Shown here: positions 1-4,250 of the stretch, piece by piece | Numbering within the stretch: position 1 is the first letter of the stretch | Layout of the letters: the number at the start of each line of letters is the position of its first letter | Virus record (IMG/VR): IMGVR_UViG_2529292977_000006 | DNA length: 4,250 nt | Source: a virus | Taxonomy: Duplodnaviria > Heunggongvirae > Uroviricota > Caudoviricetes | Reading direction: 5' to 3' (one strand) | Translations under genes and position numbers: made by a program | Notes under the pieces: model-generated | Told to the model about the DNA's origin: nothing | The model's input: only the letters and a program-made list of their open reading frames with translations | The model's database searches: none

Positions 1-582
1 TTATCAGCAACGGAAACGGCCTGGAAGCTGTGGGAACTTATGGGGGAGGTGTATTCGAACCGCTGGACCCAGAAGAACGGGGCTGCGCCGTCGAAGCTCT
101 GGATTGCTCAGATTGGCGCGATGACTGAACAGCAAATCCGGCAGGTCTGCCGTCAGTGCATGGACCGCTGCCGGGCGGGTGAAACGTGGCCTCCGGACCT
201 GGCTGAGTTTGTGGCGTTGATTTCGGAGAGCGGGGCAAATCCATTTGGCCTGACGGTGGATGCCGTGATGGAGGAGTACCGTCGCTGGAGGAATGAATCC
301 TGGCGGTACGACGGGAGTGATAAATACCCGTGGCCACAGCCGGTGCTGTACCACATTTGCCTCGAGATGCGTGACAGAGGGATTGAGCGGCAGATGACGG
401 AAGGTGAGTTAAAACGACTTGCAGAACGGCAACTGACGAAATGGGCAAAGCAAGTTGGTAACGGGATGAGTATTCCCCCGATCCGGAGACAACTCGCATC
501 GCCGAAGTGCCCGCAAGGGCCAACGCCAATTGAATTACTGAAACAGGAATACGAGCGCCGGAAGGCGGCTGGTTTTGTTTGA
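1..582 (+). CDS. Replication protein P-like (lambda P family helicase loader), 5'-truncated by the window edge
   Basis: The reading frame is open from base 1 (LSATETAWKLWEL precedes the first ATG at 40) and ends at TGA 580-582. The translation resembles the central and C-terminal part of lambda P as I recall it: PPDLAEFVALISE vs PSPGQFVAWCRE, a conserved YPW, and IPPIRRQLASP vs IPEPVKQLPV near the C-terminus. Minus-strand ORFs overlapping it are judged spurious. Confidence 0.7.
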   Translation, partial: LSATETAWKLWELMGEVYSNRWTQKNGAAPSKLWIAQIGAMTEQQIRQVCRQCMDRCRAGETWPPDLAEFVALISESGANPFGLTVDAVMEEYRRWRNESWRYDGSDKYPWPQPVLYHICLEMRDRGIERQMTEGELKRLAERQLTKWAKQVGNGMSIPPIRRQLASPKCPQGPTPIELLKQEYERRKAAGFV

Positions 583-615
583 ATCTGAGAAACGATTTTG
601 TCGGAGGAAATTTTA

Positions 616-1332
616 ATGGAAACCGTATCTGACGCACTGAAAGCACTGAAAAGAGCCTCTTCACATGTGGTGGCAGCTCGCCTTGGAATTAGTCGTGAAG
701 AGGCTGTCAACGAACTGTGGAAACTGAAACGCCGTGGAGAAGCGGATAACAAGGGGGCGATATGGTGGCTGACTCAGGCTGGTGAAAGTGAACCGGTGTC
801 ACCGGTACCGAAAGTGACGGCGCAAATGCTGACAGAGGCGATTGAACAACATGGCCCACAAACGGCGGATGAACTGGCATTGATGTTCGGAATTACCTCC
901 CGCCGGGCGAATTCATCGCTGGCAATGGCAATCAGCAAAGGGTGTCTGATTCGCGTGAATCAGGATGGTAAATTTCGTTACTGCATACCGGGCGTTGATT
1001 TACCGGCAGAGCCGAAAGCAGCATCCGTAGCTGAAACGGAGGGTAAAGCCCTTCCTCAGCCAGCTGGTGTTGCGTTACCAGTCCAGGAAACGGCTGCACA
1101 GGAAGAAATTAAAACAGAAGCGGTGGAGGACATTGTGAAGTTGCAGCAATCGTTCACTGAAGCGAAAGCAGATGACCTGATTCTACCATCGCTGCATGTG
1201 GCTAACCGCGAGCTGCGCCGGGCGAAAAGTAATGTTCAGAAGTGGGAGCGAGTCTGTGCTGCGCTACGGGAACTGAACAAACACAGGGATATTCTCCGGG
1301 ATATTACCGCCACCAGAGAGCAGCAGCGGTGA
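616..1332 (+). CDS. Hypothetical protein with two tandem winged-helix-like modules, a Pro/Ala-rich linker and a C-terminal coiled-coil-like tail; occupies the position of ren
   Basis: ATG at 616 is preceded by GGAGG (603-607) at 8 nt; the TTG at 598 used by the ORF track has no SD. Stop TGA at 1330-1332. Two segments have a similar HTH-then-basic-wing pattern (residues ~10-50 and ~75-125), followed by [26 protein letters not shown] and a charged helical tail. It sits immediately downstream of P, as ren does in lambda. Confidence 0.6.
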
Positions 1333-1646
1333 GTGGCTGGAAGAAGTGGCGCTGGGCTGAAATCCTGATACTCCGGCAGTGTGCGGGAACGATGAGAGTC
1401 GAAAGCATCGGTTATCTGATTGGCCGTAGTGAGTCAGCCGTCAGGACGAAAGCGCGGGAACTGGGTATCAGCATGATGTTACGGGGTGATTATCACCAGT
1501 CAGCCAAATGTTCACAGCGTGATATTGAGCTGGCGTGGCAACTGCATCAGCGTGGTGTACCCCGACGGGAAATTGCCGAAAAGTTTGGGATGAAGTTGGG
1601 CGCAGTGAATAACTACGTTTATTTCGACAGGAGGGTTCAGGAGTGA
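1329..1646 (+). CDS. Small helix-turn-helix DNA-binding protein (hypothetical)
   Basis: ORF in frame 0 ending at TGA 1644-1646. GTG at 1329 overlaps the upstream stop (GTGA), a typical coupling arrangement; the alternative start is ATG 1392. The ATG at 1242 would overlap the upstream gene by 90 nt and is rejected. Two HTH-like segments: [21 protein letters not shown] and [21 protein letters not shown]. Confidence 0.5.
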
Positions 1647-1945
1647 GGGTGAGGGTTTATATCGCCGGTCCGATGACGGGATATGAAAATTTTAACCGCG
1701 AGGCATTTCACAAAACGGAAGAGGTGCTGAAACGGGAAGGGCATACCGTTTTAAACCCGGCAGTACTTCCGGACGGGCTGACTCAGCCACACTACATGGA
1801 TATTTGCATGGCAATGCTCCGTTGCGTGGATGCGGTTTACATGCTGAAAGGCTGGCAGCAGTCGGCAGGTGCAGGGGCTGAGCTGGCACTGGAGGAGAAA
1901 CCGGGCCATGCGGTGATTTTTCAGGAGGTGGGCAGTGAATATTGA
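1643..1945 (+). CDS. DUF4406-like protein (nucleoside 2-deoxyribosyltransferase-like fold)
   Basis: GTG at 1643 overlaps the upstream TGA (GTGA) and is preceded by AGGAGG (1629-1634) at 8 nt; stop TGA 1943-1945. The ~100-aa product starts VYIAGPMTGYENFNREAF, which matches my memory of the N-terminal YIAG-x-(I/M)TG motif of DUF4406 / deoxyribosyltransferase-like proteins. This is recall, not a search. Confidence 0.6.
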   Translation: MRVRVYIAGPMTGYENFNREAFHKTEEVLKREGHTVLNPAVLPDGLTQPHYMDICMAMLRCVDAVYMLKGWQQSAGAGAELALEEKPGHAVIFQEVGSEY

Positions 1946-2252
1946 CCCGGCGATAACGATTGATATGGCCCTGAACGCCGGCCTGGCACTTCTTGGTTAT
2001 TTCTACATTATGTTCTGCAGCGGACGATGGCTGTCACTGTTGTTCATGAAAAAATGGAATAAACGCCGTAAGCAGGAGCAACGCCAGAAGGCAATGGATG
2101 CATTTTTCGAAGCCTTCGGAATTGACGGCATGGAACCAGGGGATCCAGCTCGCGCAATCAGCAGAGGGGGTGTAGTAATCCTTGTATATCGGAGTGAAGA
2201 GAAAAATGACGATCACAAAACAACGTGTAGAAGAAATCATATCCCGCATTGA
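1935..2252 (+). CDS. Small membrane protein (hypothetical), one predicted TM helix followed by a basic stretch
   Basis: GTG at 1935 with AGGAGG (1923-1928) at 6 nt; it overlaps the upstream gene by 11 nt. Hydrophobic segment ALNAGLALLGYFYIMFCSGRWLSLLF followed by KKWNKRRKQEQRQK. Stop at 2250-2252. The 3' end overlaps the next gene by 47 nt, so the true C-terminus is uncertain. Confidence 0.45.
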   Translation: MNIDPAITIDMALNAGLALLGYFYIMFCSGRWLSLLFMKKWNKRRKQEQRQKAMDAFFEAFGIDGMEPGDPARAISRGGVVILVYRSEEKNDDHKTTCRRNHIPH

Positions 2253-2523
2253 AATGTATGGACATGGTGCAGGGTATATCGCAGACGAGGTTAATGATCT
2301 GGCTATACTGGCGCTGAATTTATCAAATATCGCGAACCTGAAGCGATACGAGCTTGATATGGGAGGTTGCGACTCGTGCGGTCAGGATTGTGGCGCTGAT
2401 ATGACTGAAGATCCTGATGGTGATTATGTCCTGTTTGATGACGTGGTTAAGTTGTTTGAATTTGATACAACCACTCAAAAGTTAGAAATCCCGGCAAAGG
2501 AGGCAGCCAGTGGGCAAGATTGA
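2206..2523 (+). CDS. Hypothetical acidic protein with a Cys-rich knuckle (GGCDSCGQDCG); N-terminus paralogous to the 3143..3700 product
   Basis: ATG 2206 is chosen over the TTG at 2182 because the resulting N-terminus MTITKQRVEEIISRIEMYGHGAG aligns with MTTITKDRLLTIQHWRETYGPGS of the gene at 3143. Stop TGA 2521-2523. Weak SD (GGAG at 2191-2194). Confidence 0.55.
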   Translation: MTITKQRVEEIISRIEMYGHGAGYIADEVNDLAILALNLSNIANLKRYELDMGGCDSCGQDCGADMTEDPDGDYVLFDDVVKLFEFDTTTQKLEIPAKEAASGQD

Positions 2524-2947
2524 CTATCAGGCACTGCGTGAGGCAGCACAAAACTATCAATCGACGCTGGCGTGGTATCAGGCTACCCCGGACAGCCCAA
2601 ATGCTGAACGGGATTGTGATGCGGCTCTTGCTGCGTTTAAGCGTCACATCCGTCATCGGGAAGCGGATATTATCGCTGATTTGCTGGATGGACTGGAAGA
2701 AGCAAAATCACAACTCAACGAGCAGCGTGAGTATTACGAAGGCGTTATCTCTGATGGGAGCAAGCGTATTGCTGAACTGGAAGCGCGGGAAGTTCAATTA
2801 CCGACTCGCTACGACCTTCGATATGGACACCCGATAAATGCAGATGAGCGACATGTCATGATACCTAAAGAAAATGGCAGTTGGCTTTACCTGATTGACC
2901 TAGAACACGCATTACGCGTCGCTGGCATTCGCATCAAAGGAGAGTGA
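2510..2947 (+). CDS. Ead/Ea22-like family protein (coiled-coil phage early protein)
   Basis: GTG at 2510 with AAGGAGG (2497-2503) at 6 nt, overlapping the upstream gene by 14 nt; stop TGA 2945-2947. N-terminal DYQALREAAQ, central EEAKSQLNEQREYYEGVISDGSKRIAELEAREV and C-terminal AGIRIKGE match what I recall of lambda Ea22 / P22 Ead-like proteins. From memory only. Confidence 0.6.
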   Translation: MGKIDYQALREAAQNYQSTLAWYQATPDSPNAERDCDAALAAFKRHIRHREADIIADLLDGLEEAKSQLNEQREYYEGVISDGSKRIAELEAREVQLPTRYDLRYGHPINADERHVMIPKENGSWLYLIDLEHALRVAGIRIKGE

Positions 2948-2948
2948 G

Positions 2949-3140
2949 ATGAACGGACAAATATCAATTGTTCGACCAGGAGCATGTGACGATCGCGAAA
3001 TACGAATGATTATTCGTCTGGCGATGGGGAAAACAATAACTGCTCTCATTACTCCAGAAAATCTCGCATTAGCATTAACAGGAAAGTCAGACATGCCAGT
3101 AGAGCTAAAGCTGCGAAATGTTGAGATTAAGGTGAAATAG
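2949..3140 (+). CDS. Hypothetical small protein (63 aa)
   Basis: ATG 2949 lies 1 nt after the upstream stop, with AAAGGAGAG (2937-2945) upstream; stop TAG 3138-3140. No recognisable motif; it is called on operon context and the ribosome-binding site. Confidence 0.5.
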   Translation: MNGQISIVRPGACDDREIRMIIRLAMGKTITALITPENLALALTGKSDMPVELKLRNVEIKVK

Positions 3141-3142
3141 CT

Positions 3143-3700
3143 ATGACCACTATTACCAAAGATCGACTGCTGACAATCCAGCATTGGCGCGAAACATACG
3201 GACCGGGTAGCAACGTTGTGCTTCCAGCAGAAGAAGCGGAAGAGCTGGCACGGATTGCGCTGGCATCACTGGCAGCAGTATCGGATGAACGAGCAGCCTA
3301 TGAATTATTTATGGAGAAGCGTTTCGGAGAATCTGTAGATCGCCGCAGAGCAAAAAATGGCGATAGAGATTACATGGTATGGGATATGGCGCTTGGCTGG
3401 ATTATCTGGTGTCACCGCGCCGCCATGCTTCAGGCTGGAAACTTTCGGGAAAATAAGGGTTCGTCAACCAATAATTTTCGGATAATCTCGGAAACGTCAA
3501 CCAACTCTCCGGCAATCCCTGATGAGGTGTTGTCCGCAATCCTGAAGGTCGCCAGGCTTCGTGCAGATTTCGATGCTTCTGAAGTGGACAGGCGAGGTAT
3601 CGGTAGTTGTCTGGATGAGGCCGAGCAAGAACTTATCGTTACCATTAACGAATACGCCAGTCAGATCGCAGTAGAAGCGACACAGGGGGAGAACCAATGA
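3143..3700 (+). CDS. Hypothetical protein (185 aa); N-terminus paralogous to the 2206..2523 product
   Basis: ATG 3143 lies 2 nt after the upstream stop, with AAGGTGA (3129-3135) upstream; stop TGA 3698-3700. Shares the N-terminal pattern MT(T)ITK-x-R...YG-x-G...AL with the gene at 2206. Confidence 0.6.
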   Translation: MTTITKDRLLTIQHWRETYGPGSNVVLPAEEAEELARIALASLAAVSDERAAYELFMEKRFGESVDRRRAKNGDRDYMVWDMALGWIIWCHRAAMLQAGNFRENKGSSTNNFRIISETSTNSPAIPDEVLSAILKVARLRADFDASEVDRRGIGSCLDEAEQELIVTINEYASQIAVEATQGENQ

Positions 3701-3774
3701 GCCGGCCAGATGCATTTGCAGGCGTTGCTATAGCTATTGCTTTTCTAGTATATGTTATTTGTCGGTGGGGGTAA
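3697..3774 (+). CDS. Candidate 25-aa hydrophobic micropeptide (MSRPDAFAGVAIAIAFLVYVICRWG)
   Basis: ATG 3697 overlaps the upstream stop (ATGA), with GGGGGA (3685-3690) at 6 nt; stop TAA 3772-3774. One short hydrophobic helix. Too short for the ORF track; the call rests only on coupling geometry, the SD and hydrophobicity. Confidence 0.3.
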   Translation: MSRPDAFAGVAIAIAFLVYVICRWG

Positions 3775-3809
3775 AAACGTTCGCCGGGATTCACACCAAG
3801 GGAGGGAAT

Positions 3810-3914
3810 ATGTCGGATGATATTTCACTGGTAATGGAAGGCGCTCTGGCTGTTATTGCTGTTGTGGGTGTTTACTGCCTGGTTGTGTTTTTGATGGAGC
3901 GCCTGGGGAACTGA
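3810..3914 (+). CDS. Candidate 34-aa small membrane peptide (MSDDISLVMEGALAVIAVVGVYCLVVFLMERLGN)
   Basis: ATG 3810 is preceded by a strong SD, AAGGGAGGG (3798-3806); stop TGA 3912-3914. One TM-like helix flanked by acidic N-terminal and charged C-terminal residues. Not in the ORF track because of its length. Confidence 0.45.
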   Translation: MSDDISLVMEGALAVIAVVGVYCLVVFLMERLGN

Positions 3915-3924
3915 ATTCATTCCG

Positions 3925-3940
3925 TATGGGAATTCCCATA
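3925..3940. promoter_or_regulatory. 16-bp perfect palindrome TATGGGAATTCCCATA (candidate operator or weak hairpin)
   Basis: The sequence equals its own reverse complement. It lies 11 nt after the stop of the 34-aa ORF and about 15 nt upstream of the candidate hok promoter -35. There is no following T-tract, so a classical intrinsic terminator is unlikely. Confidence 0.3.
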
Positions 3941-3954
3941 TCGGGCAAAACGGT

Positions 3955-3982
3955 TTGCTGTAAAGCGAGAGTTAAGTAGAAT
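3955..3982 (+). promoter_or_regulatory. Candidate sigma70 promoter for the hok transcript
   Basis: -35 TTGCTG (3955-3960), 16-bp spacer, -10 TAGAAT (3977-3982). This would give a leader of about 170 nt before the hok ATG, in line with the long structured leaders of hok mRNAs. Confidence 0.3.
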
Positions 3983-4000
3983 TGCTGCGGGTGCTTGAGG

Positions 4001-4036
4001 CTGTCTGCCTCGGGCATGCCACCGTAAGGCAGACAG
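4001..4036 (+). other. Stable hairpin in the presumed hok mRNA leader (10-bp perfect stem, 16-nt loop)
   Basis: CTGTCTGCCT (4001-4010) is the exact reverse complement of AGGCAGACAG (4027-4036). It is not followed by a U-tract. Confidence 0.35.
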
Positions 4037-4157
4037 AGAAAAGCCCCAGTTAACATTACGCGTCCTGCAAGACGCTTAACATTAATCTGAGGCCCAATCT
4101 ATGCTTCACAAACGTAGGTTAGCCTCTTACGCGCCGAAAGGCAAGGAGAAGCAGGTT

Positions 4158-4250
4158 ATGAAGCAGCAAAAGGCGATGTTAATCGCCCTGATCGTCATCT
4201 GTTTAACCGTCATAGTGACGGCACTGGTAACGAGGAAAGACCTCTGCGAG
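4158..4250 (+). CDS. hok: Hok-family type I toxin (HokD/RelF-like), 3'-truncated by the window edge
   Basis: ATG 4158 is preceded by AAGGAGAAG (4142-4150). The translation MKQQKAMLIALIVICLTVIVTALVTRKDLCE matches the N-terminus of E. coli HokD/RelF as I remember it, including the TM helix and the conserved Cys. An in-frame ATG at 4101 with its own SD lies upstream. Confidence 0.75.
   Translation, partial: MKQQKAMLIALIVICLTVIVTALVTRKDLCE

Follow-up and report, generated by a model that had tools for sequence, protein, structure and literature searches.

The closest described counterparts of the gene analysed here are ren of bacteriophage lambda and ydaW (b1361) of the Rac prophage of E. coli K-12. 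Lambda ren is an early-operon gene that lies just downstream of the helicase-loader gene. Anti-Rex activity of Ren is said to have been described by Toothman and Herskowitz in 1980, and to our knowledge such activity is known for Ren only. We also know of no mechanism for Ren after some 45 years, and the term "Ren-like" therefore carries little mechanistic content. The 96-aa product of lambda ren, whose length had been given as about 96 aa in the initial annotation of the locus, matches phrog_142 ("Ren-like exclusion protein") at E 1.6e-41. A study on ren (Thomason & Court 2022) is cited in PMC11077077.

K-12 ydaW follows the loader gene of an early operon of the racR-ydaS-ydaT-ydaU-ydaV type. 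Its family is catalogued as DUF1627/YdaW, without an assigned function in those catalogues, and K-12 ydaW itself is elsewhere listed as encoding a putative transcription factor of the MarR type. A literature search for DUF1627/PF07789 retrieved incidental mentions only and no functional study. K-12 ydaW is listed among the prophage "blockers" that relieve the toxicity of RcaT (retron-Sen2) in a TIC overexpression screen in which 11 hits were re-validated (bioRxiv 10.1101/2020.06.22.160242), and this is restated in a review (PMC11951105); ydaW is referred to here as a screen hit.

We analysed a stretch of viral DNA of 4250 nucleotides (IMG/VR record IMGVR_UViG_2529292977_000006), hereafter the window. 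Its open reading frames are all on the plus strand and form a close-packed series with frequent overlaps. Since a promoter and terminator scan of the window yielded matches at chance level, the gene under study appears to lie inside an operon. As had been annotated initially, a 238-aa gene directly follows a P gene. Its reading frame is intact (238 codons, start ATG 616, TGA stop 1330-1332), and the upstream gene is lambda-P-like. Features of the locus are listed in Table 1.

Table 1. Coordinates of the DUF1627/YdaW-family gene, of its neighbours and of the predicted domains of its product.
Feature	Position	Strand	Basis
Lambda-P-like helicase-loader gene, directly upstream of the YdaW gene	40..582	+	PF06992 E 1e-16; phrog_109 "P-like helicase loader" E 7.7e-61; RefSeq "replication protein P"
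Shine-Dalgarno GGAGG	603..607	+	8 nt before ATG 616, read from sequence
CDS of 238-aa DUF1627/YdaW-family protein, stop included	616..1332	+	ORF list and sequence
wH1, constant N-terminal winged helix, aa 1-52	616..771	+	AF2 a1-b1-a2-a3-b2-b3, pLDDT >95
Linker 1, short Pro/Val-rich spacer, aa 53-68	772..819	+	pLDDT falls to 69-81; composition
wH2, basic Ren-type winged helix, aa 69-123	820..984	+	AF2, pLDDT >95; profile homology to wH1
Linker 2, acidic Ala/Glu/Pro-rich, predicted disordered, aa 124-172	985..1131	+	pLDDT 51-61; composition
Conserved linear motif, aa 173-192	1132..1191	+	Column counts, 48 members
C-terminal basic amphipathic helix, heptad pattern, aa 193-238	1192..1329	+	AF2; periodicity
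105-aa HTH protein gene, GTG start overlaps YdaW stop (GTGA)	1329..1646	+	RefSeq CDS; phrog_323 "transcriptional regulator, D5-like" E 2e-24

The product of the 616-1332 gene is, near certainly, a full-length member of the DUF1627/YdaW family. It matched Pfam DUF1627 (PF07789) with 271.5 bits against a gathering cut-off of 28.1 (E 2.3e-81), with aa 76-230 aligned to profile positions 1-155 of 155, and phrog_630 at E 1.1e-114 over aa 1-237, that is, over the full length. The initial annotation had not named this established family; the protein is already catalogued and does not represent a new kind of system. In a BLASTP comparison with K-12 YdaW, 57% identity was found across both winged-helix (wH) domains (aa 1-139, E 4e-53). 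K-12 YdaW, in contrast to the window protein, is truncated: the remnant is 186 aa long and has neither the conserved motif nor the C-terminal helix. The loader gene in front of K-12 ydaW encodes the DnaC-like YdaV, whereas the loader in the window is lambda-P-like.

The family is narrow yet abundant. Searching 1.84 billion 50%-identity representatives retrieved 143 matches, three of which (P0205, P0231 and P0256, each matched in many stretches) were rejected as spurious, being repetitive, low-complexity sequences without a DUF1627 match; P0205 is a cadherin/Ig-repeat protein. Related DNA is present in 2035 out of 5426 complete E. coli genomes, at up to seven places per genome, and the family comprises 2290 clusters at 90% identity, while 24 of 50,697 deposited phage genomes carry it. 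No family model matching YdaW was found in NCBIfam or PADLOC. It is near certain that YdaW is accessory in lambdoid prophages of Enterobacteriaceae, Rac-like ones among them, its gene being placed in the early rightward operon directly after the helicase-loader gene.

RefSeq calls an identical CDS in O157:H7 genomes: a CDS with 100% identity to the 717-bp gene is carried by many chromosomes of E. coli O157:H7 (WP_000451012.1, "DUF1627 domain-containing protein"). The O157:H7 copy resides in a Rac-like prophage adjoining potC, in the order integrase, excisionase, racR, HTH gene, ydaT, DnaT-like gene, P, DUF1627 and onward; several pseudogenes are found in the prophage that carries the WP_000451012.1 gene. 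The window is a close variant of this prophage: it is 99.9% identical to the prophage of O157:H7 TR01 at 1-3518 and 94.7% identical at 3711-4250. Positions 3519-3710, which have no match to the TR01 prophage, form a mosaic joint; the gap falls within gene 3143-3700, whose RefSeq counterpart is named DUF551. No exact match to the whole window was found among the complete E. coli genomes in our collection.

The gene that follows YdaW is probably translationally coupled to it, as judged from the GTG start overlapping the YdaW stop. The 105-aa HTH protein that it encodes is not a Ren homologue, as matches to the Ren HMM are absent across the whole window; its score with Sigma70_r4_2 was below threshold. 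The same arrangement is probably present in about 35 of the surveyed loci: the HTH gene was called as the neighbour in four, and in the other 31 a DUF4406 gene was called, the ORF picker having probably skipped an HTH gene whose presence is presumed. In the window, a small NDT-like DUF4406 protein is encoded in the same operon at 1643-1945 on the plus strand (PF14359 E 2e-33; phrog_355 "nucleoside 2-deoxyribosyltransferase" E 4e-43). At the far end of the window (3989-4250, plus strand) lies a type I toxin-antitoxin locus of the hok/sok type, with Rfam sok (RF01794) scoring 114.9 bits at 3989-4163. The Hok-family toxin ORF starts at 4159 (MKQQKAMLIALIVICLTVIVTALVTRKDLCE…) and continues beyond the window end; hokD is annotated in the related O157:H7 prophage.

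We built an AF2 model from 48 diverse family members (mean pLDDT 82.7). The model shows what is predicted to be a flexible "beads-on-a-string" chain, with wH1 followed by wH2, a disordered acidic linker, a short motif and a heptad helix. Structure prediction and profile comparison had been proposed as checks in the initial annotation; AF2 and hhalign both confirmed the winged-helix fold, and no unrelated fold was assigned. The predicted elements of wH1 are H4-11/E13-15/H16-23/H27-39/E43-46/E49-52, and those of wH2 are H69-79/H84-91/H95-107/E112-116/E119-123. L34 and W50 of wH1 are invariant across the 48 members. The two domains differ in charge: wH1 is acidic in most members (family mean net charge -1.9, with an acidic third helix), whereas wH2 has a net charge of +3.6 in the family, its third helix contributing +1.9. 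The two wHTH-like repeats that had been noticed in the sequence are thus recovered at high confidence in the model, and the family profiles of wH1 and wH2 aligned over 53 columns (hhalign prob 95.6%, E 1.1e-8), by which measure they are true homologous repeats. Pairwise BLASTP of the two protein halves against each other gave no match; the repeats are visible to profiles only.

Linker 1 varies between 11 and 41 aa in the family. Linker 2 is 23-67 aa long, variable in sequence and always acidic (mean net charge -5.1). The latter had been described as Pro/Ala-rich, which its composition bears out (residues 124-175 contain 19% A and 12% P), yet with 15% E it is Glu-rich as much as Pro-rich. The low-confidence stretch of the AF2 model (pLDDT 51-61) extends over aa ~130-190.

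As can be seen from the alignment of the 48 members, the linker is followed by a linear motif with the family consensus (E/D)(I/F)(V/L)x(S/D)(I/L)P(V/S)(F/L)T..R(P/A)DDL(I/V)(I/V)P(T/S). P191 is kept in 44 of 48 members. The window allele reads IVKLQQSF at 1132-1146 (aa 173-180), so that IP of the motif is replaced by QQ; where the window copy has LQQSF, 39 of the 48 relatives have a proline, …(S/D)(I/L)P(V/S)F. The QQ substitution, unusual for the best-conserved linear motif of the family, is common to the O157:H7 copies, which are 100% identical to the window allele. Since the conserved I-P is lost and the prophage contains several pseudogenes, the QQ allele may, as far as sequence comparison goes, be functionally altered or impaired. 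A mimic of the C-terminal tail of SSB, with an acidic linker followed by D/S-I-P-x-F, was considered for this region and rejected: the motif is internal rather than C-terminal, and the window copy has no I-P.

The C-terminal region, described initially as coiled-coil-like, is modelled as two helices (193-222 and 224-237) with pLDDT above 90. Across the 48 members (aa 193-230), hydrophobicity power at a period of 3.5 was 0.54, compared with at most 0.085 at other periods. The heptad pattern spans about five heptads within the predicted helix, at least four being the mark of a coiled coil, in agreement with the initial description. The helix has a net charge of +5.4 in the family, and R201 is nearly invariant. 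It is presumed from the model to be a self-association or partner-binding element.

The constant and variable parts of the family are apparent from a census of 140 representative clusters. The architecture wH1-wH2-Cterm was found in 51 clusters, wH1-Cterm in 14 and wH1-wH2-wH2-Cterm in two, the rest being fragments or chimeras. wH1 is present in every full-length architecture. Thus, wH1 and the C-terminal module are constant, with between zero and two copies of the Ren-type wH placed between them, and it follows that the Ren-type wH is an optional, repeatable cassette. The representative search also retrieved chimeric ORFs (P0147, P0124, P0126 and P0125) in which the DUF1627 C-terminal part is joined to other N-termini; that of P0147 is a YdaU-type DUF1376 domain. 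Many fragments consist of wH1 only or of the C-terminus only, which suggests frequent recombination or decay at the locus in prophages.

The relationship of the window protein to Ren was then considered at the level of domains. Lambda Ren has a single wH, with the same a1-b1-a2-a3-b2-b3 order; a Ren homologue modelled with AF2 (pLDDT 74) showed this order followed by a short helical tail. The window protein matched phrog_142 at E 1.4e-4 through wH2 (aa 71-120, 50 residues only). Three quarters of the family (36 of the 48 members) matched phrog_142 at E <= 0.01 (lowest E 5.3e-11), mostly via wH2 in the members examined. Phrog_142 is the top non-self PHROG, narrowly before a "MarR" PHROG that Ren also matches. 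When domain profiles were compared by hhalign, wH2 aligned with Ren residues 4-52 at E 6.6e-5 (prob 64%) and with the wH of 143-aa Ren-like/LygF proteins at E 1.1e-5 (prob 82%), the alignment of wH1 with Ren being far weaker. With whole-protein profiles, the alignment of wH2 and Ren was at E 0.0015 (prob 16%), and pairwise BLASTP of the window protein against lambda Ren gave no match. It is plausible from these profiles that wH2 and the Ren wH are distant homologues, remotely and at the domain level; the similarity is confined to a generic wH fold and is of modest significance (hhalign prob 16-64%). The initial annotation had limited the similarity to architecture and position. Both of these stand, and the word "only" was too cautious in view of the remote homology of wH2.

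Outside wH2, the window protein and Ren part ways. The Ren C-terminal signature N-[LI]-[IV]-[FC]-[KR]-E-C-R-x-S-x-x-M-x-R-V-L-A, found in LygF-type neighbours as well as in the lambda Ren alignment, is absent from the window protein; unlike Ren, the latter has no ECRxSxxMxRVLA, and its wH1, long linkers and heptad helix are additions that Ren does not have. The C-terminal profile of YdaW aligned with the Ren-like profile at E 0.43. With 238 aa, two wH and a heptad helix, the protein falls outside the Ren size class (single wH, about 96-145 aa). No match to the Ren HMM was found in any frame of the window or of an 18.7-kb prophage stretch (L001).

IMG/VR, GTDB genomes and annotated phages together yielded 173 loci with a family member, whose neighbours we classed with a simple greedy ORF picker; 167 loci had enough sequence. 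A scan of genome contigs gave 6 loci, and a viral scan with P0163 gave no match. Of the 118 loci in which the upstream neighbour could be called, 113 have a helicase-loader or replication gene there (DnaC-like loader in 99, lambda-P-like in 10, initiator-like in 4). Near-identical YdaW proteins (>=95%) were found behind both DnaC-like and P-like loaders, so YdaW is not matched to one loader family. Its downstream neighbours are mosaic. In 46 of these 167 loci (28%), the gene next downstream of YdaW encodes a true Ren homologue. Shigella phage 75/02 Stx is one carrier of both ydaW and a Ren-like gene. These homologues are of 143 aa and are annotated as "LygF" or "Ren-like exclusion protein"; their profile aligned with lambda Ren over residues 6-93 (hhalign prob 97%, E 6e-11). 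Since the LygF proteins are true Ren homologues, "LygF" is a misleading name for the long form of Ren. LygF/Ren-like proteins of 141-143 aa are encoded at L011 5786-6217, L012 5802-6233 and L013 5778-6200, their wH and the C-terminal motif of Ren being set apart by an insertion of ~30-45 residues. Where both genes occur, the order is loader - YdaW - Ren. The adjacency of YdaW and Ren in these 46 loci shows that they are separate, coexisting genes, YdaW being additional to Ren and not a replacement for it. In sequence terms, Ren is a neighbour of YdaW, and YdaW is not an enlarged Ren.

Fold comparisons placed YdaW among other winged-helix proteins. The best Foldseek matches in the PDB were the group of tandem-wH scaffolds ScpB, ESCRT-II subunits, UFL1/DDRGK1, the SelB C-terminus and AlkX/YcaQ (E 1e-4 to 1e-2), which likewise contain two consecutive wH. 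TM-scores were 0.2-0.3, low because the wH domains of YdaW sit on a flexible linker and are not packed, and, unlike these scaffolds, YdaW has no sequence relationship with them and no common partner-binding features. Foldseek against BFVD returned generic wH proteins, with Ren absent from the top matches, and a PDB sequence search stayed at noise level (designed repeat proteins and one archaeal wH at E 0.41). Z-alpha domains contact nucleic acid through residues such as Asn173 and Tyr177 of ADAR1; these Asn/Tyr contact residues are not conserved in the family columns, and YdaW has no combination of helix-3 Asn/Tyr with a wing Pro-Pro-x-Trp. Pfam scores for the MarR, ArsR and TrmB wH transcription factors were all under threshold. 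MarR_2 scored 15.0 bits against a cut-off of 27, which leaves the protein outside that family, and, unlike MarR, the AF2 model shows bare wH units of 52-55 residues without flanking dimerisation helices.

We tentatively put forward, as the likeliest of the readings considered here but one that has somewhat less than an even chance of being right, that YdaW is a Ren-like counter-defence adaptor acting in lytic growth. The C-terminal helix would self-associate or dock onto a partner. The target of the wH modules would be a nucleic acid or protein belonging to an abortive-infection system, of the host or of a resident prophage, that phage replication would otherwise trigger. By this binding the toxic effector of the system would be kept silent, a task of the sort that genetic work attributes to Ren against Rex; Rex-type exclusion and retron toxins (e.g., RcaT) are examples of such systems. 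Consistent with this proposal are the position of the Ren PHROG as the closest non-self PHROG of wH2, the true Ren homologue next downstream in more than a quarter of the loci, the independence of YdaW from loader type and the appearance of K-12 ydaW among the RcaT blockers. The latter is a screen hit, the relief came from a truncated allele with the two wH domains only, and an overexpressed DNA-binding protein can mitigate toxicity in an indirect way, e.g., through reduced expression of the toxin. Also against the proposal are the generic nature and modest significance of the similarity to Ren, the fold searches that gave generic wH and tandem-wH proteins only, the lack of a PADLOC or NCBIfam match, and the loss of the conserved I-P in a window allele whose prophage carries several pseudogenes.

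The initial annotation offered a "different DNA-binding regulator" as an alternative. In its specific form, in which YdaW would be a sequence-specific transcription regulator of the MarR/TrmB type, with wH2 and perhaps wH1 reading DNA, the C-terminal helix dimerising and phage or host promoters being tuned in lytic growth, we consider it doubtful. Every Pfam wH/MarR score was below its gathering threshold (about 15 bits vs 27), and MarR-type dimerisation helices around the wH are absent from the model. Between the wH and the sole candidate dimerisation helix lie 50-70 disordered residues, a poor geometry for operator recognition that argues against a rigid operator-binding dimer. Since the basic wH2 is wholly missing in natural variants (14 clusters), the core function cannot consist in the reading of DNA by wH2, and wH1 is acidic in most members. 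The free swapping of neighbours, in turn, means that there is no conserved cis target beside the YdaW gene. An accessory role in phage replication, in which YdaW would modulate initiation or helicase hand-over by binding to the loader, DnaB, the initiator or the origin, appears distinctly unlikely. The strict position behind a loader or replication gene fits such a role, as do the replication and chromosome-organising factors among tandem wH proteins, e.g., ScpB, and the recombinant ORFs in which YdaW is joined to a YdaU-type DUF1376 domain (P0147). However, one and the same allele (>=95%) follows AAA+ DnaC-like as well as lambda-P-like loaders, which are unrelated to each other, and this promiscuity speaks against any one component of the replication module being its specific physical partner; numerous lambdoid phages, lambda and P22 among them, replicate although they lack YdaW, which few phage records carry (24 of 50,697), and the fusions, found along with many fragments, resemble recombination scars. 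We regard it as very unlikely that YdaW is an enlarged Ren orthologue which took over the Ren slot and confers protection from Rex exclusion, a reading that follows the expanded Ren-like factor raised as a possibility in the initial annotation. The gene is the first after P, a Ren homologue is absent from the window and from L001, and wH2 is remotely Ren-like; but the conserved Ren C-terminal motif is missing, the family core of wH1 and C-terminal module has no counterpart in Ren, and the two genes stand side by side in so many loci.

The counter-defence proposal may be extended to the whole family, in a form that we hold to be rather unlikely as it stands: DUF1627/YdaW proteins would be modular anti-abortive-infection factors, with a constant chassis of wH1 and C-terminal motif/helix and between zero and two exchangeable Ren-type wH cassettes, each neutralising a particular suicide system, such as retron toxins of the RcaT type or Rex-type exclusion. 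What is added here to the catalogued family is a domain map, the recognition of the middle domain as a plausible distant relative of Ren, the finding that Ren genes are frequent and distinct neighbours, and the cassette census. The counter-defence hypothesis for YdaW is directly testable. EHEC genomes are crowded with lambdoid prophages, and YdaW genes reside in the early operons of these; if the modular reading is true, it would provide the first function for DUF1627, and lambda Ren would gain a mechanistic relative.
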